Of a DNA stretch of 64,000 nucleotides, positions 9,980 through 42,266 are shown one piece after another. The position numbers and the translations under genes are program-made. Below the pieces are notes generated by a model. That model did no database searches. It was not told the origin of the DNA and worked only from the letters and a program-made list of their open reading frames with translations. The stretch's first letter is position 1, and each line of letters begins with the position of its first letter. The DNA comes from Phycisphaerae bacterium (GTDB taxonomy: Bacteria > Planctomycetota > Phycisphaerae > UBA1845 > Fen-1342), in NCBI GenBank assembly GCA_963675745.2, contig CAXXWX010000015.1, forward strand, positions 192,001-256,000, given 5' to 3'.

Positions 9980-10161
9980 TGGTGCATCCTCCCACGAAGC
10001 AGCCATGTCAGACATTCAGTCCCTGCAGGCGGCCGGCGCTGCGGTGCCTGGCGCGCTCTACAGTGATGGGGCGCTTGATTCCCCCCCCTTCAGACGCGAG
10101 AATGAAAGCAGGTACCCGTCAAAAAAAACGGGGGATATTGCGTGCCGGGGAGCGTACCGAC

Positions 10162-10740
10162 GTGGGCGAGCCTTCCGATCCAACGGGACTATTGGTGGGT
10201 GTCTCGTCTGGTGATCGTGAGGCAGAGAATCGCCTGACACCGCTGGTCTATGCGAACCTGCGCGCCTTGGCCGCAAAAATGATGCGCCGCGAGCGCGCCG
10301 ATCACACGCTCCAACCGACGGCACTCGTCCACGAGGCGTACCTGAAGCTGATCGACCAGACGCGTGTGACCTGGAAGAACCGGGCCCACTTCTTCGCGGT
10401 GGCCGCGCAGGCCATGCGGCGCATCCTTATCGATCACGCCCGCAAGCGCGCCGAGGTAAAGCGTGGAGGCCGTCAGTCGCGGCTCGCTTTCGACGAACAG
10501 CTCGTGGCCGAGTATCAGCGCTCGGTAGACCTCGTGGCCCTGAGTGAGGCGCTGGACCGACTAGCCATGCGCGATCCGCTCCTGGTACGCATCGTCGAGC
10601 TGCGCTTCTTCGCCGGACTGACTGTCGCCGAGGCCGCCGAGGTCCTGGGAATGTCCAGCAGCACCGTCGAGCGCGAGTGGCGCTGCGCGCGCGTCTGGCT
10701 GCGCGCGGTTCTTTCCAACGAGGAAGACGCCGGCACATAG
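10162..10740 (+). CDS. ECF-type sigma-70 factor, kinase-associated (TIGR02999-like)
   Basis: LVYANLRALAAKMMRRERADHTLQPTALVHEAYLKL; FFAVAAQAMRRILIDHAR; IVELRFFAGLT..EAAEVL..S.STVEREW; GTG start 10162 after GGGGAG. Confidence 0.9.
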   Translation: MGEPSDPTGLLVGVSSGDREAENRLTPLVYANLRALAAKMMRRERADHTLQPTALVHEAYLKLIDQTRVTWKNRAHFFAVAAQAMRRILIDHARKRAEVKRGGRQSRLAFDEQLVAEYQRSVDLVALSEALDRLAMRDPLLVRIVELRFFAGLTVAEAAEVLGMSSSTVEREWRCARVWLRAVLSNEEDAGT

Positions 10741-10748
10741 GGGGCCCC

Positions 10749-20652: not shown

Positions 20653-20670
20653 GTCTACGCCCTTTCCGTA

Positions 20671-23076
20671 TCAAGGCTCGCGCGGGCCGGCCCCCGGCCG
20701 CGGCGCGCCAGCCGTCCAGTTCTCGTTAATCCGGCGGGCAACCGTCCGACAGGCCCGTTCCACCAGGGAATCAAATGGCTCGACGGTTCCCTGTGCGTCA
20801 CTCTTGACCGCGACCGTCGGCGTGTCGGGCGTCTTGACGATCGGCCCGAATTCAAAATCCGTTACCGTGTCCAGCACGCTGAGCTCGAGCGCATAGTGCC
20901 AGTTGAACCAGCCCGCCGGATAATCGCCGCGCTGCATCCCCGTGCAGGCGGCGGTGGCGTGACCGCAGATCAGGATGTCGCAGGCGTTTTCGCGCGCCGT
21001 GCGAACGAGGGTGGCGCGATCGGCCGTGGCGGGCACGTCCACACTCACGATCCGCGCGGCCTGGTCCTGCAATTCACGAGCCAGCCAGCGCTCCACCGTT
21101 CCGCGCTCGGGTGAGGCATCCGCGGAAAGCGTCTGCGCTACGACCACCATGATGGCGGGCTCCCCTGCCAGCAGCGGCGGCCGCCAGAGGTCTTGCGCGG
21201 TGACCGTATACTCGCGCTCGATCACGCTGTCAGGTGTGTGCGACCGCAGGGTGACGTATACGGTGCGACCGTCGGTTGGCAGGTCGCCGACTTCGCAGTA
21301 CTCCCCGCGCACCGTCGTGCTGCAAAGGTCATCGAGGCGCGGCGAGGTTCCAAGCAGCAGGTCACGGCGCTCCACCGCGGTTCCATTGCTGACTGCAAAA
21401 CGCACGCTCGGCCCGTTGAGCTGGGCGCCGTCGCGCGGACTGGTGATCTCGGCGGCCACTGGCTCGGGGGGGGTGTCCGTGTCATCGACTACGCTCGCGG
21501 AGGCAGGCTCGGAAACCGCGTCTCCGGCGCGCACAGACGCCGCCGTTGGCGCCGACAGACCGGCCCGCGTGCTCCAGGCCAAAACCGCCAGCAGAAACAC
21601 AACCGGCACGAGGGCCACGGCCCAACGGGTGGATCTCCGTCTGCGGCCGGCCGGTCGGGGCGGTTTATCAGCGGACTTGGTCGGCGGCACGACGGTACCA
21701 CCATCGCGGTCCTCGTGCAGCCAGCGCGTTAGATCGTCAATCAGCGCGGCACAGTCGGCGTAGCGCGCAGCGCGGTCTTTGGACAAGCACTTCTGGCAGA
21801 TGGCCGCCATGCGCGCCGGCACCGACGGCACACACTCGCGCGGCGGCTTGGGCTGCACGCAGACGACCTGGTGGATGGCCTGTTCGAGCGTATCGCCATC
21901 AAAGGCCGGCGTGTACGTCAACATCTCGTACAGCGTGGCGCCGAGCGAGAAGATGTCGCTGCGGGCATCGATCGGTTCGCCGCGCATCTGCTCCGGACTG
22001 CCATAGCGCGGCGAGCCGAGCAGATCACCGGGCTGGGTCATGCCGGTGTCCTGGTTGAGCTGCTTGGCCAACCCGAAATCCGCGACCACAATGCGGCCAC
22101 GATCGGTGAGCATTACATTCGCCGGCTTGATATCGCGATGGACGACGTCGCGCTGGTGTGCATAGCGCAGGGCCTCGGCAATCTCGATGGTCCAGCGCGC
22201 CACCTGACGGTGGTAACGGTCGTGAAACCACGCCGGTTGTCGCGCGCGCAGGGTCTTGGCGTCGAGTGTGTGGGCGCGCAGCTCCGCGCAGCGTTTCGCC
22301 ACGTCCGTCAGCGTCGGCCCATCGACAAGCTGCATTACGATGTATGCCAGATCGTCGCGCTGTCGGTAGCGGTGGATGCGGACGATGCCCGGATAGTCAA
22401 GTCTCGCCGCCCGTTGCGCTTCCAGTTGGAAGCGGCGTCGGAAGCCTTCCTCCAGGAACAGGCTCGAGCGCAAGACCTTCACGGCAACCGGGCGATCCAG
22501 CGAGCGCTCGTAGGCACGGTAGACCGTCGCCTGTCCGCCGCGCCCGATCAAACCCAGAATCTGGAGATCTTCGTCCAGCACCGGGTGCGGGGATTCAAGC
22601 TCCGGCGGTGACTGGGATGGCGACGAAGGTTCACCGCCCGGTTCGAGGAAATCGGGGCTGTCTTCTTCATCTTTCAGATACAGTTCAACCGCCTCGCGCA
22701 GCTCAGGGTCCGCCCCGCAGGCCTCGGTGAGATACGCGGCACGACGCTCCGCCGGCAGCTCCCGCACGCTGAGATAGAGCGCTCTGATGCGCTGGTGGCG
22801 GCCGCGTCCGCCTGTTGTCTTATCATCCGGCGGCGGCGTGGCCGGGCCGCCGACAAACGTCTGCTGGCTTGGACCGTGGAGGATATCGGCGAGCGTCGGC
22901 CCGTCCGCGCCGCGCCGCGTCTCGTACTCCTGCCGGCACCGCGCGCAACCGCGCAGATGAACGCGCAACCGTGCGCGCCGCTCACGAGGCAAGCCGGCGC
23001 CAAACAGGGCTTCGTAATCAGAATCAGTCAGGCACTCGCTCATCGTCTCTCTCTCGCTGACGTCATGCGTGCTCAT
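20671..23076 (-). CDS. Membrane Ser/Thr protein kinase with N-terminal zinc-finger (HxxxCxxC) and an extracytoplasmic C-terminal region
   Basis: HLRGCARC; GRGGQATVY, VAVK, HRDIKPAN, DFG, YGSPE; TM WAVALVPVVFLLAVLAW. Confidence 0.9.
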   Translation of the reverse strand: MSTHDVSERETMSECLTDSDYEALFGAGLPRERRARLRVHLRGCARCRQEYETRRGADGPTLADILHGPSQQTFVGGPATPPPDDKTTGGRGRHQRIRALYLSVRELPAERRAAYLTEACGADPELREAVELYLKDEEDSPDFLEPGGEPSSPSQSPPELESPHPVLDEDLQILGLIGRGGQATVYRAYERSLDRPVAVKVLRSSLFLEEGFRRRFQLEAQRAARLDYPGIVRIHRYRQRDDLAYIVMQLVDGPTLTDVAKRCAELRAHTLDAKTLRARQPAWFHDRYHRQVARWTIEIAEALRYAHQRDVVHRDIKPANVMLTDRGRIVVADFGLAKQLNQDTGMTQPGDLLGSPRYGSPEQMRGEPIDARSDIFSLGATLYEMLTYTPAFDGDTLEQAIHQVVCVQPKPPRECVPSVPARMAAICQKCLSKDRAARYADCAALIDDLTRWLHEDRDGGTVVPPTKSADKPPRPAGRRRRSTRWAVALVPVVFLLAVLAWSTRAGLSAPTAASVRAGDAVSEPASASVVDDTDTPPEPVAAEITSPRDGAQLNGPSVRFAVSNGTAVERRDLLLGTSPRLDDLCSTTVRGEYCEVGDLPTDGRTVYVTLRSHTPDSVIEREYTVTAQDLWRPPLLAGEPAIMVVVAQTLSADASPERGTVERWLARELQDQAARIVSVDVPATADRATLVRTARENACDILICGHATAACTGMQRGDYPAGWFNWHYALELSVLDTVTDFEFGPIVKTPDTPTVAVKSDAQGTVEPFDSLVERACRTVARRINENWTAGAPRPGAGPREP

Positions 23077-23088
23077 CTTGTCACCTGT

Positions 23089-24345
23089 TTAGTCCGATCG
23101 TCGCAGCCGGGTCTCGATCCGATCGCCGCGCGCGTCGAGCATTACGAGTTGGTAATTGCCGAAACGCATGCGGGTGAGCAGATCTTGCAGTTGCTGTCGC
23201 GTGAGGCGCGTTCGCACGGCGAGCGTCACGACCTCCCCGATGCTCTCGTGTTCCTGCACGTGCAACACGTGCTCCCGCGCCGCAATAGCTTCGCGCATAC
23301 TCAGTGTTCTTTCCGGGCTGGTGTTCTGGATGGTGACGAAGACGGTCTGGCCGAACTGCCCAAGCTGGGCATAGGCCAACACCAGCTCCTCGACGCACCG
23401 CAGGCCTAATGCGCGACCGCTGTGCTGGAGGGCACGAACCGCGCCTTCATCGCCCGAATATTCCGAGGCCCAGGCTTCGCTGACCGGCGGCAACCCGCGC
23501 AGCAGCTCACCAGTCGCTGACGAGTGAATCACGGCCTGTGTCGAGGTCTTGTAGTCGGTCAGCCGGCGGGCCGGATTCGGATCGCCGGGCCGACCGGGGA
23601 TTTCGTGGACCTGTGCGCTGCCGACGACGTAAAACGGCGCGCCCAGATCGGCCTGCGCGTGGCGCAGCGCCGCGGCGTTGGCCTCGCCGTCGGCACGCGC
23701 GATCCCCATGGCCTTCAATTGCTCCCAGCGGCTGCGGACACGCACATCGAGGTTGAACTCCTTGAGTGCGCGCTCCAGTTCCGCGGCGACGTGCCCGCCG
23801 GCTTCCGAGCCCGGTTCGTCAAACCAGACCATCAGCCGCGGCGGGACTTCCGCGCTGAGCACCCGGCTGAGCGCGTCACAAAGCTCGCGCAGGCGCATCT
23901 CGTCAAGCTCGGCGGTGATCCTGACCGTGTACTCCTCGTGGGCGAAGCGGGGGCGGCGTCGGTCGGTGATCCGCACGTCGAACACACACTCACGCGCGAG
24001 CAGCCGGCGCGCCGCCGGGTAAATCCAGCCCGAGCGCAGCGGTTCCAGTGCCGGCCCGGCGTAACGCTGAAGGAAATTCTCGCGCGCGTTTTGCAGAGCC
24101 TCCTCCAGCCGATCGCCACGGGCGCGCCCCGAAACCACGCGCCCCGGGCCGGGCGCCGAGAGCGTCGCCGCCGGCACCGGCGCGGTGCTTGCTTCCGGCG
24201 GCGGCGGGCTGGCGTAGCTCGGTGGTCGCCGCCGAACCGGCTGCGGTGATCGGTATCGCGCCAGGGGATCCTCATCGCGGGCCGTGCAGTTGGTTGTCCC
24301 AACAAGCATGATGGCCAAAAGCACCGTTGCGAACGCGCGATGCAT
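23089..24345 (-). CDS. Exported hypothetical protein (possible lipoprotein) with FlgT/CsgG-like alpha/beta segments
   Basis: Hydrophobic N-terminus ending VGTTNC; Pro-rich linker; 'GRARGDRLEEALQNARENFL' and 'PRLMVWFDE...LGAPFYVVGSAQV' patterns; tightly coupled to its neighbours. Confidence 0.6.
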   Translation of the reverse strand: MHRAFATVLLAIMLVGTTNCTARDEDPLARYRSPQPVRRRPPSYASPPPPEASTAPVPAATLSAPGPGRVVSGRARGDRLEEALQNARENFLQRYAGPALEPLRSGWIYPAARRLLARECVFDVRITDRRRPRFAHEEYTVRITAELDEMRLRELCDALSRVLSAEVPPRLMVWFDEPGSEAGGHVAAELERALKEFNLDVRVRSRWEQLKAMGIARADGEANAAALRHAQADLGAPFYVVGSAQVHEIPGRPGDPNPARRLTDYKTSTQAVIHSSATGELLRGLPPVSEAWASEYSGDEGAVRALQHSGRALGLRCVEELVLAYAQLGQFGQTVFVTIQNTSPERTLSMREAIAAREHVLHVQEHESIGEVVTLAVRTRLTRQQLQDLLTRMRFGNYQLVMLDARGDRIETRLRRSD

Positions 24346-24347
24346 GG

Positions 24348-25529
24348 CTAGTGACCTCCTTCGGCAACGCTGCCGACAAGCACAGGTTCGCCGCGACCGG
24401 ACGGCTGCGCGCCGTGACGCGCCTGCTGGGGCATCTGAACCGGAGTGATAACGGAGCCGTTGCTATCGAGCGCATCCGACACGCGTTCGATGGCCCGGCG
24501 GGAGAGGCGGATGTAGCCGTCGTCGTCCTCGCGCTCGTCGTCGTCGCGTTCCTTGACGACGAGAGCCTGACGGTAGTGTGTCAGCGCACCTAACAGGTTG
24601 CCGCTTTTTTCGGCAATCAGCCCGAGACCGAAGTGGGCCTGGTAATCGTCGGCGCTACGGCCGACCAGCGCCAGCTCAAACGCGCTTCTCGCCGCTTCGT
24701 ACTCGCCGCGCTCGATCAGCTCGACGCCCGCGCGGCAGTGTTTGTTGCGCGATGATTCGAGCGGGATGCTCACGGTGCGGGCACCACCGAGCAGGCCGCG
24801 CACGAATTCATCCGCCGCTTCCTCCAGCACGGGGGCCACGAGCCGATCAACGGGGGGCATCTCGCTGAAGTCACGATGGCGCGCCAGGAAACCGACGAAG
24901 TTCGGCTTTAGCTCCTCGCGCTTCGGTTCAGCGCGAATGGTCCGCTGACACAAGACACTCCCGTTGAAAAGCTCAATGCGGACCCGCCCGCTGGGACAAA
25001 TCTGGCGTCCGACAGCGCGGAACACTTGCCGCCGGTTTTCGCCAACCGCCCGCTCGACGCCCCATTGCGACTCTGTAACCTCGACGGTGCAATCGATCAC
25101 GACAAGAGCATCCGCCCCTATCAGCTTGCCGTATTCGGCGGCGGCCCCGGGACGAACCAGGTCAGATCGCTGCAATTTGTGTTCGTCGAGCACGCGTTGC
25201 ATTTCGGGGCCGCGCAAGACCGTCTGCACATGCAAACCATCCTGCATGTCACGCCGACCCAGCAATGTGCCGATCCGGTTGGCAACCATCGGCGCGTAGT
25301 TCTCCACGTAAGTCCGCGACCCGCTGACCGGGCTGTCCGCCTTGAATGGCGGCCGCGCCGGCTGCGACGCGTCATAGACCACCGCGATGGTTTGGATTTC
25401 AGCGGGCAACTCCACGCGCGGCCGCTGGTGGGAAATCGCGACCAGCGCCTTCTTATGACAGCCCGCGCCACCGGGAAACAGGAACACAATCACAAACACC
25501 AACGCCAGTCCCGTACATCTGCGGTTCAT
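24348..25529 (-). CDS. Lipoprotein with CsgG/HfaB-like domain and C-terminal TPR
   Basis: GGAGG RBS, then MNRRCTGLALVFVIVFLFPGGAGC; EMQRVLDEHKLQRSDLVRPGAAAEYGKLIGADALVV; TPR-like 'AHFGLGLIAEKSGNLLGALTHYRQAL'. Confidence 0.72.
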   Translation of the reverse strand: MNRRCTGLALVFVIVFLFPGGAGCHKKALVAISHQRPRVELPAEIQTIAVVYDASQPARPPFKADSPVSGSRTYVENYAPMVANRIGTLLGRRDMQDGLHVQTVLRGPEMQRVLDEHKLQRSDLVRPGAAAEYGKLIGADALVVIDCTVEVTESQWGVERAVGENRRQVFRAVGRQICPSGRVRIELFNGSVLCQRTIRAEPKREELKPNFVGFLARHRDFSEMPPVDRLVAPVLEEAADEFVRGLLGGARTVSIPLESSRNKHCRAGVELIERGEYEAARSAFELALVGRSADDYQAHFGLGLIAEKSGNLLGALTHYRQALVVKERDDDEREDDDGYIRLSRRAIERVSDALDSNGSVITPVQMPQQARHGAQPSGRGEPVLVGSVAEGGH

Positions 25530-25926
25530 CGGTTGACCTCCCATTAGTTGTGTCTTGGCGACGCGAATACCCACTGGCACCATGCCTGACAGCCACCGCG
25601 CCACGTGTCCGCTCTATGAGGCGAAATCGGGGAACGGCGGGCGCGAAAAATCGTCGCCGTAGTGCGGGAGGAGTTCGCACGCTGTCCTGCCGCAACTGTC
25701 ATGTGCCACGGAATCGAGGGAGTGGAGTGCCAGTGTCGTTGCCAGCTCGGCTGTTTGGCGCGTATGGCTGCGTAGCGGCCTGCGCCTCGCAGGCCGTCGA
25801 TGTATGACGAGTGTCCTCAACCTCCACAGACCTTCGTCCATAAACGGCGTTTCCAAGATCGGGCGGCCGGCGAGGCGCCGGCCGTTACACGTTACGCCGA
25901 AGCATGGCGCGAAACACGGAACGCCC

Positions 25927-28497
25927 TTAGTGGGAACGGTGCTGGGGCGTTATGCGCTTGGCGGCCGGCCAGCGGGCTTGCAGTCGCACGAGCAGGCGGC
26001 GCAGTGCCGAGCGGCCTTCTTCCACAACCGGCAGAATGTCAATCCGCCCATACGGGCCGTCCTTACGGTGCAGGAAATAAACGCCGGCCGCGCTGTAGAT
26101 GCTCGTGAACACCAGCAGTGCCACGATGCTCGCAAACCACCCGTGCGAGTGCGGATCGGTCGGGAAGTGCTGCGGGTCTAGCAGTGAGCGCAAGGCATCG
26201 AGCCCCCAGTAGCACGGGATCAACGCCTTGCCAATCAGTGCCAGCGTCCCTTCCAGCGGGCCCAGCGCCTGTGTGAACAGGATCTGCGGCATGATCAGGA
26301 CCACCATCGTTATGACCGCCTTGTCCGTCGTGTCTACGGCACAACTCGCCGCCAGCCCGAGTGCGGTCGCACTGAACGCGATCAGGAACATGGTGATCAG
26401 CAGGGCCAACTCGCTGCCGGCGGCCAGGTCGAGCGGTCCGCCCCAGCGAACAAACAGGTACATCACCAACACCTGCACCGCATTGACCACGCCCAACACC
26501 GCCAGCTTGCTGCCCAGATACGGCAGGATGTGCAGCGTGGCGAAACGCTCGTGCAAGTAGATGCGCAGCTCCTTCACGACCTCTCGAATCGACCCGAACA
26601 GGCCGAGGAAGAACATGCCCACCACCACGGCGAACGTGATGTTCATCTGCCGCGCGCCTTCGGTGGCCCCTTGAGGCAAAGATCCGAAACGGTAGCTCAC
26701 CAGCACGCCGAGTATCGGCGCGAGGCCCAGCAGCAGCGCCAACGCGCGCGCGTCGTTCAACAGCACGCGCGTAAAACGCCGCAACAACACGCGAAACTGC
26801 GTGGCGTACTCGGGTGAGCGCACCACGCGCAGCAAATCCCCGGGCCGGAGCTTGGTACGTCGTTGTTCAAGCGCCGCGTTGTCGGTTTGCGCCTCGAGAC
26901 AGCGACCAGAGCAAGCCCGCGTTTCCTCGAAGCGCTGGGCCCACTCCTCGGCGGTATGGCGCGGTTCACGCCAGAAGACCTCCCGGATATTGTCCACGCC
27001 GAAGTGTTGCTTGAGCTCGGCTGGCGTCCCGTAAAACGCCAGCCGCCCCTGGATGAGATAGATCACCTTGTCGCAGGCTTCGAGGCTGTCGGCGTAGTGC
27101 GTGATGCACAGTGTGGTAACACCGCTGGCGGCCACATCGCGGAAGATCCGCATCATCTCGGCCTCAGTCCGCAGATCCAGACCACTGGTGGCCTCGTCCA
27201 GGAAGAGCGCATTCGGCCGACTCAACAGCTCGATCGCGATTGACACCCGCTTCCTCTGCCCCCCCGACAGGTTGCGCACGGCGACGCCGCGCCGTTCAAA
27301 CAGGCCGACATCACGCAGCACGCGGTCTACGTTTTGCTCGAGCTCTTCGGTTGACGTATCCGGCGGCAGACGGATTTCCGCCGCGTAAGTGAGAGCATCG
27401 GCGACGGTAAGCGCATCGTGGAAGATCAGCTCTTGCGGGACGTAGCCGATGCCGCCCTTGAAGGCGTCGAAGTGGTCGTAGAGGTTGCGGCCGTTGTAGA
27501 GCACCGCGCCCGCGGTCGCCGGCCGACGGCCGTTCATCGCGTCCATCAGCGTCGATTTACCGCAGCCCGCCGTGCCGAATATGCCGACAAACTCCTGCGG
27601 CGCGATCTTCAGACTGACGTCGGCCAGTAGTGGCGTCAGGCGCCCATCGTCCCGGCTGACTACCTGCTTGCCGAGACCCACCAGCTCTATATTGATGCCG
27701 GCGTCGCCGACCTGTTGGGCATGTTGCACGGCGTGCGACGTCAGTTGCCGCCCGTCAAACGCAAGGTCGAGTGATCCGAACCGAACATGATCACCCGCCC
27801 GCAACTGTGCCCGGCCGCGCAGCCGTTGCTCGTTAACGAACGTGCCATTGGCTGACCGCAAGTCACGGATGATCAGGCGCTCATCACGCCGTGTAATCTC
27901 CGCGTGACGACGCGAAACGGTCGGATTCGCCAACTGGCAATCACAATCCTGCCCGCGGCCGATGATCGTGACGGGCCGCTCAAGCCGGATCGCGATGTTC
28001 GGCATCGCCGGTGCATGTCGGCGGCGCGGATCAATCAGTGTGTCCAGCACCTCGGGATCACGAGCCGGGCGCCGCCCCCCCGATCCGGCGCCTGGCATCG
28101 CTGTCTTGGAGGGATCCGTTCGCACGTCGAGATCAGCCGCGGCCGACAGCGGCTGGGCGACCCGCCCGCGCTCGCTGTCGCCGGCACACGACTGCAAGGC
28201 CACGCGCAGAGTCGTGGCGCCAAGCCGCAGCGCGTCGCCGTCGCCAAGCGCCGTCGAAGCGGACACCTGCTGCCCGTTGCGATATGTACCGGACGTGCTG
28301 CCCAAGTCCATTAGCACCAGAACGTTTGACTCGTAGCTGATCTGGCAGTGGACACGACTGACCGCGGTGTCGTTCAGCACGACATCTGCGTCCTCGCCAC
28401 GCCCCAGCAGAATATGTCCGCTGCCCGAGCACTCACGTTCGAAGATCGGCCGCGAGTTGGCATGCTGGCCGGCGGTGAGCGTCAGCCGGTAATGCAT
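25927..28497 (-). CDS. FHA-FHA-ABC transporter (ATPase fused to ABC-2 permease; Rv1747-like architecture)
   Basis: Two FHA domains (LGR..VSRVH..DLGSTSGT; IGR..VSRRH..DLRSANGT); Walker A GTAGCGKST; LSGGQ; FLDEATSGLD; about 6 C-terminal TMs; GGAGG RBS before ATG 28497. Confidence 0.92.
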   Translation of the reverse strand: MHYRLTLTAGQHANSRPIFERECSGSGHILLGRGEDADVVLNDTAVSRVHCQISYESNVLVLMDLGSTSGTYRNGQQVSASTALGDGDALRLGATTLRVALQSCAGDSERGRVAQPLSAAADLDVRTDPSKTAMPGAGSGGRRPARDPEVLDTLIDPRRRHAPAMPNIAIRLERPVTIIGRGQDCDCQLANPTVSRRHAEITRRDERLIIRDLRSANGTFVNEQRLRGRAQLRAGDHVRFGSLDLAFDGRQLTSHAVQHAQQVGDAGINIELVGLGKQVVSRDDGRLTPLLADVSLKIAPQEFVGIFGTAGCGKSTLMDAMNGRRPATAGAVLYNGRNLYDHFDAFKGGIGYVPQELIFHDALTVADALTYAAEIRLPPDTSTEELEQNVDRVLRDVGLFERRGVAVRNLSGGQRKRVSIAIELLSRPNALFLDEATSGLDLRTEAEMMRIFRDVAASGVTTLCITHYADSLEACDKVIYLIQGRLAFYGTPAELKQHFGVDNIREVFWREPRHTAEEWAQRFEETRACSGRCLEAQTDNAALEQRRTKLRPGDLLRVVRSPEYATQFRVLLRRFTRVLLNDARALALLLGLAPILGVLVSYRFGSLPQGATEGARQMNITFAVVVGMFFLGLFGSIREVVKELRIYLHERFATLHILPYLGSKLAVLGVVNAVQVLVMYLFVRWGGPLDLAAGSELALLITMFLIAFSATALGLAASCAVDTTDKAVITMVVLIMPQILFTQALGPLEGTLALIGKALIPCYWGLDALRSLLDPQHFPTDPHSHGWFASIVALLVFTSIYSAAGVYFLHRKDGPYGRIDILPVVEEGRSALRRLLVRLQARWPAAKRITPQHRSH

Positions 28498-28725
28498 CGG
28501 TCTCGGCACCTCCCAGTATGGCGGGCGACGGGCCGCCGGGCGACCGCGCCGCGAACACCGATGTAGTGCGGTTTCAACACAGTTCTGACGTTCTACGTCG
28601 GCCACGGGGGGCCGACGCTACTTCTGCGTCTGACGTTCTGCCACTTCTGCGACGAGCCGTCGTGCCGGCGGCCAAGTGGCAAGTCGCTACTTGGAGAGGC
28701 GTCAAACGCCGCGTTCCCCGCGCAA

Positions 28726-28790: not shown

Positions 28791-29528
28791 ATGACCATGC
28801 ATCGACCACAATCAACGCTCCAGCTTCAGGAAGCCGCGCGTCCGACGCAAACGCAACCACAGCGGGTACCCGCACGCGTTGTTCCCCGGGACCTGAACCC
28901 GGCGGCGCTACCGGCCGGCGAACGCGCGGCTTCGTCACGGGATCAAACGGCACCCGCCACCGCCGCCGGACGTCCCCGGGGGCGGGCCTGGAAGCTGCTC
29001 GGCGCTGCGGCCGCCGCCCTGGTCGCATGGGCCGTGCTGTTGGCGCCATCTCCACCTGATGGGCCCTCGCACCCGCGCTACCACCACCACATTGAATCTC
29101 CGGCGACAGAGATCATTGTCGGTGACGAGGACATCGACCGGGCCAACACTCAGGCAGCGCGCACCGGTAACGAGGCGACTCTCGCATCCGAACCGCTGGT
29201 CGCAACGCTCACGCCGGGCGCGCGGGCGGAGATACGCGCCGGTGATGCGCGCTATTACCACATCTTCCTTTTTGATAACTGCGACGAAGACGGCGACATC
29301 GTGCAGGTGTACTTCAATGGGGCGCTGCTCGGGGAGGTCCCGATTACCCACGCCGGCACGACTATCTCCGTGCCAGTCACGCAGGGGGCGGCCGGCCTGC
29401 TGCAAATCGTCGCCGTTCACGACGGCCAGGGTGGCATCACGGTCGCATTTCAGACCAGCGCCGGGCGCCGTTATTCCCGGATTCTCCAGGTCGGCGAGAG
29501 CCAGGTGGTCAACGTCGTGGCCCCCTGA
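28791..29528 (+). CDS. Single-pass membrane hypothetical protein with C-terminal beta-rich domain (FDNCDEDGDIVQV motif)
   Basis: GGAGG RBS; TM LLGAAAAALVAWAVLLA; acidic motif DNCDEDGD. Confidence 0.75.
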   Translation: MTMHRPQSTLQLQEAARPTQTQPQRVPARVVPRDLNPAALPAGERAASSRDQTAPATAAGRPRGRAWKLLGAAAAALVAWAVLLAPSPPDGPSHPRYHHHIESPATEIIVGDEDIDRANTQAARTGNEATLASEPLVATLTPGARAEIRAGDARYYHIFLFDNCDEDGDIVQVYFNGALLGEVPITHAGTTISVPVTQGAAGLLQIVAVHDGQGGITVAFQTSAGRRYSRILQVGESQVVNVVAP

Positions 29529-29717
29529 CGCTCAACGGGAGCAAAGCCGTGGTCAACCGTGTCAAAACACTGCTTCAGCAATCACCGGCGTTTCGCTATG
29601 CCGCGCTGGTCGCCGCAATTGGAGTGGCGGTAATGCTGCTCGGGGCGGGCCCCGGCAATACAAGCGCGGCGGGATGACCATGAACCGGAGCACACACGGA
29701 TGAGGACCGGAGGCACC

Positions 29718-30992
29718 ATGCGAGCAAGCCAGCAGAGCGGTCTGGCCGGGCCGCTGGCCAACCCGACCGTGCGGCTGGCACTTCAGGCGCTGATGCTGTT
29801 CTTCATCCAGCGTTACCTCTATGTGCGTCTGCCTTTGCTCACAGTGGCAATCACCGTTTTTGCGGGGTTGGTCGCCGTAACCGCTTACCTGCTGCGGTAT
29901 CGGCGGGCCCCGCTCGTGAAGTGCTATCGCCACACAGCTTGCCGCTGGTTCATCGATCTCGTCTGTCGCTGGACGCGCGAGCAACCGCCGCTGACTGAGC
30001 CCTGCGCTGACTCCGACAACTCACCATCCCCGACAGTGCCGCCGCCGTGTCCGCCACAAACGCCGGCCAAGCCCGGCGCGCGCCCCAGCTCGACAACCGA
30101 GTTGCTGGCGACCGACGGCCTCGATTTCGAGTTGTTGCGCGATAACCTCGCGGACGTCGTTCGCGGATTCGACAATAACATCGGTACGGCCGTGGGGCGC
30201 ATACGACAGAATATGCGGCTGCGGACGGATCGCACCAACCAGGTCGCCGACGCGCCGCTGGGGGTGTTCCTGATCGTCGGTCCGGAGGGTGTCGGCAAGC
30301 GGCATTTTGCGCAGCAGCTCGCGCGCGGCCTTTACCGCTCAGCCGGCATCACCAGCATCGACCTGCGCCGTACCGCGGACGCCGCGGACAGCGTCGATAG
30401 CGTGCTCGGTTTCGACGATCGCAGCGATGGGACGCTCATTCGCGCCGTGCGCACACAGCCGTGCCAGGTGCTGCTGCTCGAGCACGTTGATTGCGCGAGT
30501 CCGGAGCTGCTCAATCGTCTGCGCGGCGTCTTGCTCAACGGGTTCCTGCGCGACGAGCGAAACGGGCACACCATCGCGTTCTCGAATTGTGTGATCGTGT
30601 TGACGACCACGCTTGGCACTGAGGCGTTGGCGCGTCTCGAGGTCGATGACGCCGAGGGCTCTGGCGCCCACCGGCAAACCGCTGATGTCCTGGCCGCGGC
30701 CACGCGTTTGCCAAAGCCGTTCCTGGCTCAGGTCCACGACATTTTGTCGCTACAGCCCCCGCCTCCGCCGCAAATGGCAGAGGTCGTGGCGCTCGTAATG
30801 GAGCAGGAGTGCGATCGCCATCGGCTGCTGCTGCGTTATGTCGCCGCCACCATCATTGCCGACGAGGTGCTCGCACTGGATCGAGAGCATGGCTATGCGC
30901 CGCTGCGGGCGCGCGTGCGCCGACGCCTGCGCGACCCGATTGACCGCGCCCGCCAGGCCGGCGCTGCACATTTGACCCTGCTTGATACGTGA
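29718..30992 (+). CDS. Membrane-anchored ClpA/B-NBD2-like AAA+ protein with degenerate catalytic motifs
   Basis: Two N-terminal TMs; Pro linker; PLGVFLIVGPEGVGKR; VLLLEHVD; FSNCVIVLTT; GYAPLRARV; GGAGG RBS before ATG 29718. Confidence 0.8.
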   Translation: MRASQQSGLAGPLANPTVRLALQALMLFFIQRYLYVRLPLLTVAITVFAGLVAVTAYLLRYRRAPLVKCYRHTACRWFIDLVCRWTREQPPLTEPCADSDNSPSPTVPPPCPPQTPAKPGARPSSTTELLATDGLDFELLRDNLADVVRGFDNNIGTAVGRIRQNMRLRTDRTNQVADAPLGVFLIVGPEGVGKRHFAQQLARGLYRSAGITSIDLRRTADAADSVDSVLGFDDRSDGTLIRAVRTQPCQVLLLEHVDCASPELLNRLRGVLLNGFLRDERNGHTIAFSNCVIVLTTTLGTEALARLEVDDAEGSGAHRQTADVLAAATRLPKPFLAQVHDILSLQPPPPPQMAEVVALVMEQECDRHRLLLRYVAATIIADEVLALDREHGYAPLRARVRRRLRDPIDRARQAGAAHLTLLDT

Positions 30993-31004
30993 GGAGACAC
31001 TCAC

Positions 31005-32006
31005 ATGGCCGAGGACATTCTCGCACGCCTGACCGACAAGCAAGTCCTGCTGCAACTGCTGGAGCAGGCTGACCGCGGCGCACGGCGAAAGATCATTGAA
31101 TCCGACATGTGCGCGCATCTCAGCGCGCGGGTCCGCGGACAGGATCACGTAAACGGTGATCTCGCTCGCCTGATCCGCCTGGAGTGGGGCAAGCAGAGGC
31201 GCACCAAGCCCATTGCCAACCTGCTGTTCCTCGGGCCGCCGGCCGTCGGCAAGACCGAGCTGGCCAAGGCCCTGGCCGAGTACCTGTTCGGCGACGAACG
31301 CAACATGCTGCGATTCAACGGCCCCGACTTCAGCGGGCCCGAGGGCAAAACCCGGCTGATCGGCACGCCGACCGGATATGTCGGCGCCGATGCCGGCGGA
31401 CAGTTGACCCGCCCGATGTTCGGCAACCGTCGCCGGCTGATTCTGTTTGACGAAATCGAGAAAGCCTACGACGGCGTTTATGACCTGTTTCTGCCGCTCC
31501 TGGGTGAAGGGCAACTCACCGAGCAGGGATCCGGACGCGTTGCCGACTACTCCGAATCGATCGTCGTGATGACCACTAACGCCGAGTTTGAGGCGATCGG
31601 CAAGATCACTGAGCAACACGAAGACGAAAACGAGTGCATGGCGGCGGTGAAGGCCCACCTGACGGCCGCCAAGGTCTTCCGGCCCGAGTTATTCAGCCGC
31701 ATCGACCGCGTTTATGTGTTCAAGCCGCTTGAGGGCGTGGTCGTCGCCGAGATCGCGGTCTTGAAGATGGTCGATCTGGCCGCCTCCTATGGCCTGACGC
31801 TTGAGTATGTCGAGCCCGACCTGGTTTTCGAGGCGCTGCAGAAGACGGCCAAGTTCGAACGCTACGACGCCCGCGAAGTCGAGCGCATGCTCGTGCCGAT
31901 GGTCGGCGAGGCGCTCCTGCTCGCACGCGAAGCCGGCGCCCGCCGTATCCGCCTCGAAGTGTCGGAAGACGGCGTTCTCGAAGTAAATCCCGCTCAGGCG
32001 GCCTGA
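31005..32006 (+). CDS. Stand-alone ClpA/B-NBD2-like AAA+ ATPase (333 aa)
   Basis: LFLGPPAVGKTELAKALA; pore loop PTGYVG; LILFDEIEKA; VVMTTN; FRPELFSRID; DAREVER; AGGAG RBS. Confidence 0.9.
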   Translation: MAEDILARLTDKQVLLQLLEQADRGARRKIIESDMCAHLSARVRGQDHVNGDLARLIRLEWGKQRRTKPIANLLFLGPPAVGKTELAKALAEYLFGDERNMLRFNGPDFSGPEGKTRLIGTPTGYVGADAGGQLTRPMFGNRRRLILFDEIEKAYDGVYDLFLPLLGEGQLTEQGSGRVADYSESIVVMTTNAEFEAIGKITEQHEDENECMAAVKAHLTAAKVFRPELFSRIDRVYVFKPLEGVVVAEIAVLKMVDLAASYGLTLEYVEPDLVFEALQKTAKFERYDAREVERMLVPMVGEALLLAREAGARRIRLEVSEDGVLEVNPAQAA

Positions 32007-34161: not shown

Positions 34162-34254
34162 CAAACATGGCATAAATCACCGCGCGTCGGCCGCGCCGCT
34201 TACGCCTCTCTGATTGTGGCAGGCCAGGTCACCGCATCCAAAGGAGAACGCGTC

Positions 34255-35214
34255 ATGTCGGATTCAAACACGCCAGGCCGCATTGGTCCCGACGCCCCCG
34301 ACTACGGCAGCCGCACCAACCCCGTCGGCAGCGGCGTGGATATCGGCCACGCACCGACGCGCGAATACCGTGAGGCGCTGCACGCCGGGCAGGCGGGTCA
34401 ATGGCCGAAAGACAAACCGAAGTTCGAGAACCTCAAGACGACGTTCGCCGGCGGACAGTGCGAGGCGCGCGTGTTTGGCCCGGGAGAACGCCTCTACAGG
34501 CTGACCGCGACCAACGGCAAGGCCGACCGTCAGTTCTGGGTCACAGAGCCGGAATACAACCGCGTGCGCGGGCACTGCGCCAGGCACGGCATCGCGCAGG
34601 AAGATGGCTTTCGTAATTCGTTGGCGCTCAAGGAGGGCTGGCAGGTCAACCTGGACCAGACGCACCGCCTCGACGTACCGCAGGACAAGTACGTGCTCGG
34701 GCACGTTGGCAAGACCGCGCACGTCACGGGTGGCTACGACCTGTACAACCATGACGACCCAGCCCGCGGCATCCGCGCCGGCGCGCGACGCAATCCGGTC
34801 CACAGCACGAGCTGGGGCGGCGGAGGCGAGCAGGTCCTCATCGCCGACGACATTCAGCTCACCGAATGGCAACGGCAGGGCCACATCAAGAGCACGCACA
34901 CACCCAGGCCACACACGCTTTCTCAGCGCATGGGGACTGCACCGACGCAGCAGCCGCAAGTCGCGAATCAACCCACGCCCCCTGCGTCCAAACCGAAGAC
35001 AACGAACTCGCGCTCGCCACAGTCGCGCCCGCGCAAGCACATCCCGCGCAAGGGTGCGCGATATGGAATTGACGTTCAAAAAGGCCGCGGCCGGCGCGTC
35101 GAGCAGCCGCGAGAAACCAGCCGGCTTCCGAAATCTCACGCGGCACGCGCCGAGAAATCCACAAACCCGACGAAACGTCAAACCAGCAAGCGGAAGCTGA
35201 CACCGAAGCTGTGA
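34255..35214 (+). CDS. Putative TNT/ADP-ribosyltransferase-fold toxin or effector with a long basic C-terminal tail
   Basis: AAGGAG RBS; motif order TFAGG..LYR..QFWVT..FRNSLAL..W..VP..G.TA..GGGGEQ resembles ART/TNT-like polymorphic toxin tips; K/R-rich low-complexity tail. The ORF is likely real; the function is inferred. Confidence 0.55.
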   Translation: MSDSNTPGRIGPDAPDYGSRTNPVGSGVDIGHAPTREYREALHAGQAGQWPKDKPKFENLKTTFAGGQCEARVFGPGERLYRLTATNGKADRQFWVTEPEYNRVRGHCARHGIAQEDGFRNSLALKEGWQVNLDQTHRLDVPQDKYVLGHVGKTAHVTGGYDLYNHDDPARGIRAGARRNPVHSTSWGGGGEQVLIADDIQLTEWQRQGHIKSTHTPRPHTLSQRMGTAPTQQPQVANQPTPPASKPKTTNSRSPQSRPRKHIPRKGARYGIDVQKGRGRRVEQPRETSRLPKSHAARAEKSTNPTKRQTSKRKLTPKL

Positions 35215-35224
35215 ACCTGTTTGG

Positions 35225-35620
35225 ATGGTCGCTATGAACGCCGACGAAGACAGAAGGGACGATCCGCCGCAACGCCGCAAGATACGCCTGGGCAGCTTCG
35301 CGCAGATCTCCGACGATTCCCGCGCACCAGCAGCGGACCTAGCAGCCCCCTCTGTGGGATCGGCCTCTGTGAGACCGGCCTCCGGCCAGTCAGACCCCAG
35401 CAGTGGAATAGACTCCAGCCTCTCCCTCAACCCGGCCGGCGATCAGGTCCCTCCCGCGCCCGACGCGGCCCCGCTGCTGAACCCGCCACTTCCGCCGATT
35501 CCAACCTCGTCACCCGAAGACCTGCGGCGGCGTCGCCGGTGGCAGGCCCAGATAAGCCGTGCCGCCACTGGCAACTATGCGGAGCAGGACGAGTACGGAG
35601 GTTTTCTGGTGGACGAGTGA
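35225..35620 (+). CDS. Hypothetical Pro/Ser/Asp-rich protein
   Basis: Starts 10 nt after the previous stop and fills the gap to the convergent ECF gene; C-terminus GNYAEQDEYGGFLVDE. Confidence 0.55.
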   Translation: MVAMNADEDRRDDPPQRRKIRLGSFAQISDDSRAPAADLAAPSVGSASVRPASGQSDPSSGIDSSLSLNPAGDQVPPAPDAAPLLNPPLPPIPTSSPEDLRRRRRWQAQISRAATGNYAEQDEYGGFLVDE

Positions 35621-35632: not shown

Positions 35633-36226
35633 CTAACTGTCGCGGCTGGCCGCGCGGCGCAAGCGGCGACGCAGCCATGTGCGCGCCATGTTCCACTCCC
35701 CGTCAACACGCCGTGGTGCGAGATCGAGGTCGTCGGCGATCTCCTGGATCGTCATCCCGAGGAAGAACTTGCGCTCGACGATCGCGAGCTGGCCCTCGTC
35801 GAGCTTGCCGAGCTGCTCCAGCGCTTCGTGCAGGTCAAGCACGTCCACAACCTGATCGCTGCGATCCGCCAGCAGAAAAGACGTCTTCAATTCACTCGGC
35901 TTCTTGCCGGCCCCGCGCTTCTTCGCGCTTTCGTGACGGGCCAGGTCGACAAGAATGCGCCGAATCTCGGCGGCGGCGGCACCAAAGAAGTGCTTGCGGT
36001 CACGCCACTGCGTGCTCGAAAGCCGTCGCATTCGATCGTAGAGCAGCCCGACGACACCGGTCGCCTCGAGATTGCGCTCGGGCGCCTCATGCCGCACAAG
36101 CCCGCGTGCGAGTATGCGCAGGCGGTCGTATACCAGGCTCCAGAAGCGTTCCTCGGCACCCGGTTCGCGCGCGATCGCCTTGTTGGCCCAGTGCGTGATG
36201 GATTCGTCGCCGGCGGGCTGATCCAC
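35633..36226 (-). CDS. ECF-type sigma-70 factor (TIGR02999-like), divergent paralog
   Basis: LVYDRLRILARGLVRHE; WRDRKHFFGAAAAEIRRILVDLAR; IVERKFFLGMTIQEIADDL; ARTWLRRRL. Confidence 0.88.
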   Translation of the reverse strand: MDQPAGDESITHWANKAIAREPGAEERFWSLVYDRLRILARGLVRHEAPERNLEATGVVGLLYDRMRRLSSTQWRDRKHFFGAAAAEIRRILVDLARHESAKKRGAGKKPSELKTSFLLADRSDQVVDVLDLHEALEQLGKLDEGQLAIVERKFFLGMTIQEIADDLDLAPRRVDGEWNMARTWLRRRLRRAASRDS

Positions 36227-36366
36227 GCTGAGTTCCCCTTAACGGGCGGCCTCGCAAGACAGGGGGCGTCCCGCCTGCAATCGCGAGACAGGAATACCGA
36301 CAGGCAGAGTATACCCGGACCGTCACATCCTGGCCCGGCCCGCAGAGATTGCTGACGGGGTGGCCT

Positions 36367-39207
36367 TCAATCAGGAGACCCGCGGGAAGCCTTATCATCT
36401 GACATGTCAGCCAGCAGTTGCCGCTGGCGCAGGTACTCCTCAAGCGGCACGGCTACGTCCGGTGGCCCGATTGACCCCAGGCGTTCCCGGGCCTGCGCCA
36501 GAATATCGAGCGCCCCCTCGTGTTGCGGCTCCCGCTCCAGGATCGCGGCCGCCAACTCGATCGCGGTGGTATAGTGGCCGACGCCGTACTCGGCCTGCGC
36601 GAGAAGCTGTTCGCACTTAAGGTCCCCCGGAAAGCGCCGCACCGCCAGCTCGGCCAGGTCGCGCGCCCTGCCGTAATCCCCAGCCTTGAGCATGAGACCG
36701 GCCATTTGCCCGGACCAGCCGGCGAGCTTGGGATCTGAGAGCAAGCGCCCGCAAATTCGATCAAACATCTCCTGCCGAGCAACCGGGTCACTCTGCGCTA
36801 ATCCTGACTCATACATCAGCCCTATTTCAGCCAACGCTGCAACAGTCCATGCCCATCGGCGCACATCGAACAGGGCCGGCGCCTCCATCGCTTGTCGCGC
36901 CGCCGCGAGCGCCTCTTCCCATCGGCCGTTGATCAGCAAGGCCATGCTATACACCGCAAGCGTAACGCCCTCGGGGTTTACAGCAGCAGCCGTCTCTAGC
37001 TCACGCAGCATCGCATCCTCGCCGGTGCCGTACAGGGCGTGACCGACGAACGCCCCCGCCACGCGTCCCCAACTCTCTGCGACCGCTGGAGGGAATCTGC
37101 TTCGCAGTGTATCCAAGACGCTTGCCGTCGCGCCGGCCTCTGCCTGCTGAAGTGCCGCGCCAATAGCGAGAACGCGGGTCATCAAGCCAAAAACCCGGTC
37201 ACGGACGCGTTCATCACCCGACTCCGCCAGCGCGTCGATATACTCGGCAGTATCGCTGACACAACGAAATATCTCACCGAGCTGATCCACATAATCGCTG
37301 TCGTGCTGATGACGTAGGCGCTCCATACAGGCGGCAAGCGCAGGCTCATCACGCTGGAATGCGCACAGCACCGCCTGGAATGTCAACGCTGCGGGGTCTT
37401 CAGGGATCAGCGCCTCCACAATTGCGAGTTGCCGCCGGCTCTCGTCCAGACGACCCGCAAGGAACAGTGTCACCGCGAACATGGACCGCGCGCGATAATC
37501 TAGCTCATCAAGCTCTACCGCCTGACCGAGCAACTCGACCATCTCTGGAATTGTCGGCGCCAGCAGCGCGCGCGCATACGCTTCCTTGGCAGGTGGCAGT
37601 CCAGCCGCGAGCGCTTCACGAATCCACTCCAGCCCGTCCTCGCGAGTCTCGGTCTGCACCAAGGCAAAGTCGCCACGCCAGAGCAGAACCTGACTGCGGT
37701 GATCGCCCAAGTCCTCGCGGGCCGCCAACTTGGCTAATTCGCGCTCCGCGTCGGCTGTTTGGTTCAACGCGTCATGGGCCACCACGATTCCGAGTCGTAG
37801 GGGCACATCATCCGGATACCCTTCGGCGATAGCCAGCCGATGGTACCTCAGCGCCGAGCGCCAGTCTCCGCGCCGCGTGGCCAGCGCCCCCGCGTCCACG
37901 TAGGATTGCACCAATAGTGAACGGGTCTCACGTTCGGCCTCGTCCGCGCGCACATACAACAACCGGGCGTCGCGTTCAGCGTTATTCGCGCGCACATACA
38001 GGTATGTGCTGACCGTCACACCGGTCACCAGCACCAGAAAGATCGCCGCGGTGCCGCCCACGAGTCCCTTGTGACGCCGCGCGAATTTGCCCAGCAGATA
38101 CGTCGCGGTGGGCGGACGAGCGGTGATCGGCTCGCCGCGCAGATTGCGGCGAATATCGTCCGCCAGGCCGGCAGCCGTCTGATAGCGTCTGGTCTTCTCT
38201 TTCTCGAGCGCCGTGTTGATGATGGCGTCAATGTCGCCGCGCAGCGCGCGATCGACGCGGCCGAGTGGCGTTGGTTCCTGCTCGCATATGATGCGCACGG
38301 CTTCGGGCACGCGCTTGTTACGCAGGTCGTGCGGCAGGCGCCGCGCGAGCAGCTCATAACCGATGACGCCGAGCGCATAGACGTCGCTGCGCGTGTCGAG
38401 GTCATCGGGCTGGCCGCTGGCCTGCTCGGGACTCATGTATGGCAGCGTCCCCACCAATTGCCCGACGTCGGTCTGCAACGTTGCTTGCTTCACATCACCA
38501 TCGGTCACCCGCGCCACGCCAAAGTCGAGCACCTTGGGCTGACCGTCGGACGTGACCAGGATATTGCCCGGCTTCAAATCGCGGTGGATGACCCCCTGCT
38601 GGTGCGCGTGTTGTACGGCGTCACACACGTCGGCCAACAGTGCCAGGCGCGCCCGCAACCCGAGTCCGCGCTGGTTCGCGTAGTCAGTGAGCGGCTGGCC
38701 GTCAACCAGCTCCATCGCGAAGAACGGCTGCGGACCCTGCTCGCTCTCAAACGTGTCGGCATCCAGGACGCGGGCCACACCGGGGTGCCGCAGGCGACCG
38801 AGCACACGCGTCTCGTGCGCGAAACGGTGCATCGCCGCCTGGGGACTGATGCCGGGATTAATGACCTTCAACGCTACGGCCTGCTGCGTCCCCGGCTGCC
38901 GCGCCTTGTAGACCACCCCCATGCCGCCGCGCCCCACCTCGTGCAGGATTTCGTAACGCCCGATCAGGGCCGGATGGTCCCCTCCGACTTGGACGGCGTC
39001 CACGCCCAGGGGCGGCGGGTCCTCGAGAAATCGGGTTGCCGTCTGCTCATCGGCCAACAGCGCGTCGATGCTCGCGCGCAGATCGACCTCCGAGCCACAT
39101 GCTTCGGCGAGATACGCGCCGCGTTCGCCGGCACTCAGGTCGCGCGCAGCCAGGTAGATCGCCTTGATCCGTCGGTAGCGCTCCGCTGACATCTCCTGTA
39201 GCGCCAT
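36367..39207 (-). CDS. Ser/Thr protein kinase with TM helix and TPR-like helical C-terminus
   Basis: GRGGMGVVY, VALK, HRDLKPGN, DFG, GTLPYMSPE; TM GLVGGTAAIFLVLVTGVTVSTYL; start approximate. Confidence 0.92.
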   Translation of the reverse strand: MALQEMSAERYRRIKAIYLAARDLSAGERGAYLAEACGSEVDLRASIDALLADEQTATRFLEDPPPLGVDAVQVGGDHPALIGRYEILHEVGRGGMGVVYKARQPGTQQAVALKVINPGISPQAAMHRFAHETRVLGRLRHPGVARVLDADTFESEQGPQPFFAMELVDGQPLTDYANQRGLGLRARLALLADVCDAVQHAHQQGVIHRDLKPGNILVTSDGQPKVLDFGVARVTDGDVKQATLQTDVGQLVGTLPYMSPEQASGQPDDLDTRSDVYALGVIGYELLARRLPHDLRNKRVPEAVRIICEQEPTPLGRVDRALRGDIDAIINTALEKEKTRRYQTAAGLADDIRRNLRGEPITARPPTATYLLGKFARRHKGLVGGTAAIFLVLVTGVTVSTYLYVRANNAERDARLLYVRADEAERETRSLLVQSYVDAGALATRRGDWRSALRYHRLAIAEGYPDDVPLRLGIVVAHDALNQTADAERELAKLAAREDLGDHRSQVLLWRGDFALVQTETREDGLEWIREALAAGLPPAKEAYARALLAPTIPEMVELLGQAVELDELDYRARSMFAVTLFLAGRLDESRRQLAIVEALIPEDPAALTFQAVLCAFQRDEPALAACMERLRHQHDSDYVDQLGEIFRCVSDTAEYIDALAESGDERVRDRVFGLMTRVLAIGAALQQAEAGATASVLDTLRSRFPPAVAESWGRVAGAFVGHALYGTGEDAMLRELETAAAVNPEGVTLAVYSMALLINGRWEEALAAARQAMEAPALFDVRRWAWTVAALAEIGLMYESGLAQSDPVARQEMFDRICGRLLSDPKLAGWSGQMAGLMLKAGDYGRARDLAELAVRRFPGDLKCEQLLAQAEYGVGHYTTAIELAAAILEREPQHEGALDILAQARERLGSIGPPDVAVPLEEYLRQRQLLADMSDDKASRGSPD

Positions 39208-39424
39208 CTCCCACACCCCTTCCGTGTCTTGCCGCGGCACACCACCACCCGAGCGCCGCCTCACGGCCGGCGAATACGGACACCGGACATACGTGCAACC
39301 GTGCCGCTGGAGTTACTTTACCACGTTTTCCCGCCGTGCGTCACGCACCCCGCGGCCCGTTACACGGGCGTACGCGCTCAGCGCAACTTCCCAAATCGGG
39401 CGCCCCCAGTGCATTGAACGCTTA

Positions 39425-42193: not shown

Positions 42194-42266
<73 letters not shown>

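Follow-up and report, generated by a model that had tools for sequence, protein, structure and literature searches.

The 64-kb stretch of DNA analyzed here (from a Phycisphaerae bacterium; hereafter, the window) carried six close genes on the plus strand: (i) U (28791–29528), encoding a bitopic protein whose N-terminus is disordered and whose C-terminal part is an Ig-like beta-sandwich, with one predicted transmembrane (TM) segment; (ii) B (29700–30992), encoding a 430-aa pseudo-ATPase of ClpB-D2 fold with a predicted N-terminal TM hairpin, assigned to type B1 (see below); (iii) A (31005–32006), encoding a 333-aa soluble stand-alone AAA+ ATPase of ClpB-D2 type; (iv) the gene for P0003 (32025–34007), a VirD4/TraG-like coupling-protein ATPase for which about four TM segments are predicted near the N-terminus, and which has intact Walker A and Walker B and matches over cut-off to PF10412, PF02534, and PF12696; (v) a candidate toxin/effector gene (34216–35214), whose 332-aa product had no hydrophobic segment and ended in a basic disordered tail; and (vi) a small hydrophilic ORF (35225–35620) with an N-terminal R-L-G-S-F motif. 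The coupling-protein gene started 18 bp after A. The initial annotation, made from the sequence alone, had taken the unit to be a two-gene pair of B and A; the pair was confirmed, the upstream U (a core member and the marker gene of the module) was found to belong to the unit as well, and a toxin cassette had gone unnoticed. A short motif resembling R-L-G-S-F was also present in small ORFs at four related loci; this pattern was set after those ORFs had been viewed, and 0.3% of background ORFs matched it. Divergent from the operon, and possibly within the wider locus, was an FHA–FHA–ABC transporter gene (25927–28605, minus strand), of which a full-length homolog (33%) lay on the opposite strand in one other VirD4-type locus, L178, adjoining a kinase gene. 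The GC content of the locus was the same as that of the remainder of the window, and promoter and terminator scans gave matches at chance level only. A CsgG-like reading of 24348–25604 was dropped: the two-CsgG-protein profile matched three loci, and the window was not among them.

Protein A displayed every motif quoted for it in the initial annotation, each at its place: GPPAVGKT at residue 77, GYVG at 124 (with pore-loop Tyr125), FDEIEK at 148, SRID at 231, and DAR at 288. It also had sensor-1 N192. The family of A was made up of stand-alone proteins of about 330 aa; eight motif columns were canonical in 52–55 of 55 rows (the exceptions being gaps plus one Phe), and the Arg finger was kept in 53/55. 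Both A and B matched PF07724 (AAA_2) over cut-off, and the ClpB/ClpA/TssH models were matched in their D2 part only: just model positions of about 450–850 of the class 1 Clp models were covered, with scores far under the cut-offs, and scans with these models detected neither a Clp N-domain nor NBD1 in either protein, as had been annotated. Identities were 34–41% between A and Clp D2 domains and 22% between A and B. The IGF/L loop after sensor 1 was found in 0/55 A rows and 1/50 B rows versus 9/26 control rows. A metagenome scan with the A alignment was set aside, its matches having only 32–43% identity, the ordinary Clp D2 range.

Protein B presented the degenerate counterparts GPEGVGKR at residue 194, LLEHVD at 259, FLAQVH at 341, and GYAP at 398, as annotated initially; the A and B family profiles aligned end to end (profile–profile; probability 99.8, E 7.7e-30), confirming the motif register. 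B of the window thus retained Walker A Lys200, had Arg201 in place of Thr, and had lost the Walker B Asp-Glu pair, sensors 1 and 2, the Arg finger, and the pore loop. Starting at another ATG, at 29718, would shorten the protein to the 424-aa form of the protein collection. The AlphaFold model of B (pLDDT 82.9) was composed of an N-terminal helical hairpin (residues 22–43 and 45–67), a disordered linker, and a ClpB-NBD2 fold (Foldseek matches to ClpB NBD2 4fd2 and 4lj9, E about 4e-16). Of the two TM segments claimed initially, residues 46–64 alone passed the hydropathy threshold (2.25), with the first segment peaking at 1.36; two TM segments are nevertheless likely, because the model contained a hairpin and most B orthologs had two hydrophobic peaks.

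The species-genome scan retained 80 loci, 53 of them with A orthologs (45–62% identity) from Planctomycetota, Acidobacteriota, Verrucomicrobiota, Gemmatimonadota, and Pseudomonadota. A second AAA gene was present in 48/53, and a predicted membrane-anchored B accompanied A in all 48 evaluable loci; the remaining 5/53 were cut off by the contig edge inside A or right at it. A U homolog was clustered in 43/53; among the 10 loci without it, seven were at contig ends, L036 matched by tblastn, and the others were L018 and L027. L027, L035, and L036 showed apparent U–B fusions, which were disregarded; in L035, the U match lay in another frame. One viral contig carried a B2-type module (see below). 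U was absent from 400 other genomes of the host's class (0/400), and the VirD4-like coupling protein was not found in 400 genomes of the host's phylum, so the locus is accessory and was probably acquired.

The B proteins fell into two types, both with N-terminal hydrophobic segments (the third AAA of L046 was left out of the B counts). B1 comprised 20 rows from four phyla (18 loci, the window, and P0005): Walker A Lys was kept in 19/20, Walker B Glu and sensor 2 in 1/20 each, and sensor 1 and the Arg finger in 0/20, and the pore loop in none; Walker A Thr was replaced by Arg in 17/20 and otherwise by Lys or Gln, and three Arg positions were specific to the B1 clade, each in 17/20. B2 comprised 30 rows from 30 loci, with catalytic motifs canonical in 30/30 and the pore Tyr missing in 30/30. 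Word-based protein searches recovered few B1 relatives (three and eight matches), which reflects their limit of sensitivity. In the tree (126 rows, unrooted, without a clade test, long branches flagged; L072, L079, and fragments of <260 aa left out, and L058 left out of the controls), A, B1, B2, and the Clp controls each made up one side of a branch, and B1 plus B2 were split from A plus Clp with support 97. By this sequence comparison, A and B form their own clades apart from Clp D2 domains. A proteins with a B1 partner clustered together (support 85), as did those with a B2 partner (98), and these subgroups mirrored the B tree; a reduced tree gave the same result. The simplest reading of these sequences is a single loss of catalysis in a B lineage already without the pore Tyr.

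The initial annotation had proposed to check whether the degeneracy of B is conserved in orthologs, where canonical motifs would mark this copy as simply decaying. Canonical catalytic motifs were indeed found in B2, but not in B1, the window's own clade, where the losses were conserved. For the AAA domain (Nei–Gojobori), dN/dS was 0.12–0.32 in B1 (five pairs), 0.02–0.09 in B2 (six pairs), and 0.01–0.20 in A (11 pairs), these pairs excluding the window's copy and several dS values being high and near saturation. Judged from these coding sequences, the B1 clade is under purifying selection. Decay would account for the long branches and for a dN/dS relaxed relative to A and B2, but the reading frames were intact, identical losses were shared by 20 sequences of four phyla, Lys200 and the three clade-specific Arg positions were retained as above, and dN/dS was well under 1; the shared motif losses and the low dN/dS make decay very unlikely, to the point of being nearly negligible.

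The U protein was modeled as a beta-sandwich (pLDDT 77; best Z 5.8), fold searches gave no specific match, and there was no match in Pfam, NCBIfam, or PADLOC. Its family contained 929 representatives at E<=0.001. U was detected in 4/401 genomes of the alphaproteobacterial class, of which three loci were read (L187, L188, and L189) and the fourth (G1500) was an N-terminal match only. These loci displayed modular variations behind U: (i) L187 had a partly degenerate TM-AAA plus a soluble Clp-D2 AAA; (ii) L188 had one AAA only, a TM-hairpin protein in which all motifs, GYVG among them, were present and whose soluble part started like A; and (iii) L189 had a degenerate TM-AAA, a soluble AAA of CbbX/SpoVK/EccA type (TIGR03922, E 6.5e-75, below cut-off), two more genes, a P0003 ortholog, and a toxin. 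No coupling protein was found within the DNA read of L187 and L188. Searches of plasmids yielded a single U locus and, in addition, one distant coupling protein. Methylorubrum plasmid NZ_CP088249.1 carried U plus a one-TM AAA that was catalytically intact and had no pore Tyr; A was absent, and the U–AAA pair was oriented divergently to the genes of a coupling protein and a MobQ relaxase. As far as gene order and motifs go, L189 is the same design built from another AAA clade, the unrelated CbbX/EccA type. In design, these variants appear to share an AAA motor that is kept at the membrane behind U, and this supports an anchor role for B.

The neighborhood of A and B to a VirD4-like protein, pointed out initially for the window, proved to be a real link: orthologs of P0003 (34–51% identity) lay beside U in 11 further loci. 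Seven coupling proteins from these loci were combined into a profile, which other subfamilies could escape; it matched 11/18 B1 loci, the other seven ending within 4.2 kb downstream, and 0/30 B2 loci, 25 of which had at least 7 kb downstream. Six of the 11 matched B1 loci had P0003 orthologs directly downstream. The other five, of Pirellulaceae type, had a coupling protein of another subfamily (23% in the best local match, over 136 aa), which was encoded about 5.4 kb away next to relaxase-like genes (weak MobC match); this subfamily is probably a mobile element's own module and may only mark the mobile element. A reciprocal search with P0003 alone detected 7/301 genomes of one acidobacterial family, four of which were new; among these four, the two loci with upstream DNA both carried U–B–A. 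Wherever upstream DNA existed, U accompanied the coupling gene. Since B1 is one clade, its link to the coupling protein counts as one event, plus L189.

A toxin-type domain was assigned by tool in 10/12 loci with a P0003 ortholog: nonspecific endonuclease (L002 and L174), lipase (L174), glutamine deamidase (L046 and L176), VgrG3-like muramidase (L176 and L177), zeta toxin (L001), HNH (L005, just under cut-off), and ADP-ribosyl-cyclase fold (L026, L178, and L189; E 7e-7 to 9ro8). L003 gave no toxin-domain match. A reading of domains in L003, L046, and L176 as adenylate-cyclase toxins was set aside, Pfam and NCBIfam giving no match. The positional equivalents of 34216–35214 in other loci were toxins, and the gene itself is a likely toxin gene, although this call is weak. 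Its product had no Pfam match at E 0.1 and none in NCBIfam, PADLOC, or PDB; an atlas feature match of 0.90 to a PF14021 (TNT) cluster (rank 20, 159 shared features) gives a TNT-like NADase as a lead only. BLAST did not bear out a likeness between 34216–35214 and an L002 ORF. None of 21 neighboring ORFs had a hydrophobic segment (maximum 0.78), and 18/21 had very hydrophilic tails versus 6.6% of background, although these ORFs had been picked by eye and p-values for the tails are not a fair test. A muramidase must act outside the cytoplasm. No clear immunity genes were found at the loci, and no export channel was encoded in the locus. As for type IV secretion, the window genome (91% complete, so that VirB genes may have been missed) contained the VirD4-like coupling protein, no match to VirB10 (PF03743), and a TIGR00929 (VirB4) match in the coupling protein alone; among other carriers, VirB10 was over cut-off in 1/5 and a VirB4-family match was obtained in 1/5.

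The initial annotation had proposed a heterooligomeric ring in which a dead subunit anchors an active unfoldase to the membrane. The anchoring part is favored, because B accompanies A in 48/48 evaluable loci and a one-gene TM-plus-active form exists in L188; the tethering of A by a predicted B1 anchor at the inner membrane is thus considered probable. An alternating heterohexamer is not favored: B1 has no Arg finger, and an alternating A3B3 ring would therefore have no complete active site. In the proposed mechanism, a ring or spiral of A would thread the polypeptide by means of its Tyr pore loop; B1 would bind A through its retained AAA surfaces and keep it at the membrane; and since B1 would contribute neither ATP hydrolysis nor an Arg finger, its place would be at one end of the A spiral or once per ring, rather than in alternation with A. 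The kept Lys200 suggests that the pocket face of B1 is the face still in use, and B2, judged from its motifs, could alternate with A. U would be the envelope-side partner, the coupling protein would pick substrates without signal peptides by their hydrophilic tails, and outward export would go through a channel outside the identified parts of the locus. The whole reading, in which B1-anchored A unfolds toxins recruited by the coupling protein for export, is held tentatively, with a little less than even confidence. Export cannot be the function of the whole family, because the B2 form (30 loci) showed no coupling protein or toxin nearby.

The main features of these loci were also weighed against other functions. 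U–B–A might be a general motor for remodeling the envelope, acting on bitopic proteins (U and beta-helix, Sel1, or BNR partners) by extracting or switching them, with the coupling protein and toxins as a separate cassette on the same island: at the B2 loci, the core was accompanied by TM beta-helix, Sel1, or BNR genes and not by a coupling protein, L187 and L188 had none in the DNA read, and the U family was far larger than the VirD4-type set. The position of the coupling gene directly after A in the window and in other loci, its constant company of U where upstream DNA existed, and its staying with U when the AAA pair was replaced (L189) speak against a separate cassette, and this remodeling role is regarded as unlikely. 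An inhibitory role of B1, as a membrane-bound brake that joins A oligomers, poisons them, and lets go on signal, would fit the missing of both halves of the composite active site, so that inclusion of B1 would silence two sites; with B2 and L188 occupying the same slot with intact catalysis, anchoring fits better than inhibition, and a brake seems highly doubtful.

Two further explanations keep the toxins and change their route. In one, the module is an auxiliary loader for the host type VI secretion system (T6SS), the coupling protein and A preparing effectors. TssC was present in 10/11 VirD4-type genomes tested and the effector domains overlapped those of T6SS (PF21277), but TssC had base rates of 205/301 and 41/60 (68% in both host families), from which the co-occurrence was indistinguishable; moreover, G401 had no TssC match, TssC was found in only 2/17 B2 genomes, the host T6SS already has its own TssH, and no VgrG, PAAR, Hcp, or Rhs domains were reported in the scanned neighboring ORFs. 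A loader is accordingly thought quite improbable, and we give much the same low weight to a defense or suicide system in which U would be the sensor of phage or of damage to the envelope and intracellular toxins (NADase or nuclease) would be set free by the ATPases. The patchy distribution of U, the NAD- or nucleic-acid-directed nature of several toxins, and the weak similarity of A to the stand-alone ClpB-like ATPases PADLOC PDC-M37B (E 5.9e-25) and Dodola DolB (E 1.8e-14) would suit defense; these matches were limited to about 135–160 residues of the common ATPase core, no known partner was matched (DolA gave none among nine proteins scanned), and the muramidase and lipase domains point outward.

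Compared to known systems, A and B shared the fold of the Clp NBD2/D2 domains (ClpB, ClpC, ClpA, and TssH), with motifs complete in A only; class 1 Clp proteins have two tandem NBDs with an N-domain, whereas A and B contained no N-domain, NBD1, or middle domain, and B had a predicted TM hairpin. The unfoldases that partner with ClpP (ClpA, ClpC, and ClpX) have the IGF loop, which A did not contain. Skd3 is ankyrin-fused, mitochondrial, and without a dead partner; Skd3 (human CLPB; 8zrs and 7ttr matched) is likewise a single Clp-D2 ring. EccA serves a secretion system; the clade of CbbX, SpoVK, and the type VII secretion system ATPase EccA was that used by the L189 variant, whereas the window pair was of Clp-D2 type, and no WXG or Ecc genes were seen at the locus. 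To our knowledge, AAA+ motors with a dedicated dead partner have been described mainly in eukaryotes (Torsin/LAP1) and among clamp loaders. PMC4358337 describes LAP1/LULL1 as membrane-anchored nucleotide-dead ClpB-D2-like partners that target the soluble AAA+ protein Torsin to the membrane, AAA+ ring sites as completed by the neighbor's Arg finger, and LAP1 as the supplier of the finger that Torsin lacks. Set against that description, the logic of A and B1 was reversed, A having its own finger (53/55) and B1 none (0/20), and B1 kept the P-loop Lys and the C-terminal lid domain, neither of which LAP1 has.

The bacteria-killing T4SS of Xanthomonadales, as presented in PMC6759196, employs a VirD4-like ATPase and X-Tfe effectors with variable lipase, nuclease, and lysozyme-like toxins. 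A VirD4-like ATPase and variable toxins were also found at the present loci, but no VirB genes were found at the locus or in the genome, and the AAA pair and U were additional here; XVIPCD was not reported by general Pfam scans of the neighboring ORFs. The text available of PMC7159879 had no VirD4 and named ClpB in a reference only, and that of PMC3482391 had no VirD4 and stated that classical polymorphic toxins do not use T4SS. The module was not described in the full-text literature searched, with subscription journals outside this scope and the supplements of PMC7159879 and PMC3482391 as places that could list such loci. It is a conserved module and a member of no family tested, composed of known parts in a system matching none known. 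The most far-reaching reading is an undescribed toxin-export machine in which an orphan coupling protein would select toxins without signal peptides and a tethered intact/dead AAA+ unfoldase would drive them out without VirB or T6SS parts; its motor would occupy a modular slot taken in some loci by one TM-ATPase, in others by Clp-D2 pairs in three stages of degeneration, and, independently, by a pair of CbbX/EccA type. This reading is possible, although we lean clearly against it.

These loci presented a bacterial graded series in one gene slot, namely fused active, pore-less, and fully dead, which opens to direct test the number of working subunits required by a threading ring and the origin of pseudo-ATPase anchors. 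If the export reading is true, the module would add a way of exporting antibacterial toxins in soil and sludge phyla that have received little study, it would explain a class of coupling proteins without T4SS, and U would be a marker gene for finding new toxin domains.

The AAA genes varied among the loci related to the U-B-A module (Ig-like membrane protein U, TM-anchored partner B, and soluble ClpB-D2-type AAA+ protein A): (i) L046 had a third AAA gene (11027-11893) placed between A and the coupling-protein gene, and this recent duplicate of A had lost the Walker B Asp-Glu, the pore loop, and the Arg finger and thus represented a second, soluble dead copy; and (ii) L189 (2800-10438, minus strand) carried a CbbX/SpoVK/EccA-type AAA pair in place of the Clp-D2 pair in the otherwise same module, together with an ortholog of VirD4-like coupling protein P0003 and an ADP-ribosyl-cyclase-fold toxin. 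The coupling-protein gene of L005 was split into two pieces (10990-12935), attributable to either a frame break or a long-read error.

The Pirellulaceae-type loci (L006, L016, L021, L029, L043, and others) differed in what lay directly after A: genes for a Cas4-like nuclease and an HTH-kinase fusion came first, and then relaxase-like genes and a gene for another coupling protein. An integrase was often close by, and three copies (L006, L021, and L029) were found in one genome. A module with the B2 type of B, which kept its catalytic motifs, was located at 4340-10981 of the phage-like or mobile IMG/VR contig L186, together with DNA polymerase and ligase genes.

The window displayed a divergent minus-strand operon (19741-28605) encoding an FHA-FHA-ABC transporter, a TPR lipoprotein, an unknown lipoprotein, a Ser/Thr kinase, and an M48 peptidase, which we take to resemble phosphorylation control modules of secretion systems. 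Also present were a minus-strand pair (35633-39264) made up of an ECF sigma factor and a Ser/Thr kinase-TPR protein and, 6.5 kb past the module, a tRNA-Lys gene (42194-42266) with which no integrase was seen. The same genome contained a T6SS region (L190, G000:C1:147000-166000) with two TssC-family genes and TssH.

In acidobacterial loci L002, L026, L046/L179, L174/L175, and L178, the cassette extended to a membrane-anchored subtilase and a small TM protein, and the opposite strand encoded a Ser/Thr kinase, an SLT-like gene, an NlpC/P60-like gene, and a CsgG-like protein, a candidate outer-membrane pore there; CsgG was not found in the window. An R-hydrophobic-x-G/S-F motif, a pattern defined after the fact, occurred in small or N-terminal disordered stretches of the window (35225-35620) and four other loci (L001:13055, L001:13366, L002:7289, L003:2162, and L026:15151, repeated three times in L026); it might act as a docking tag.
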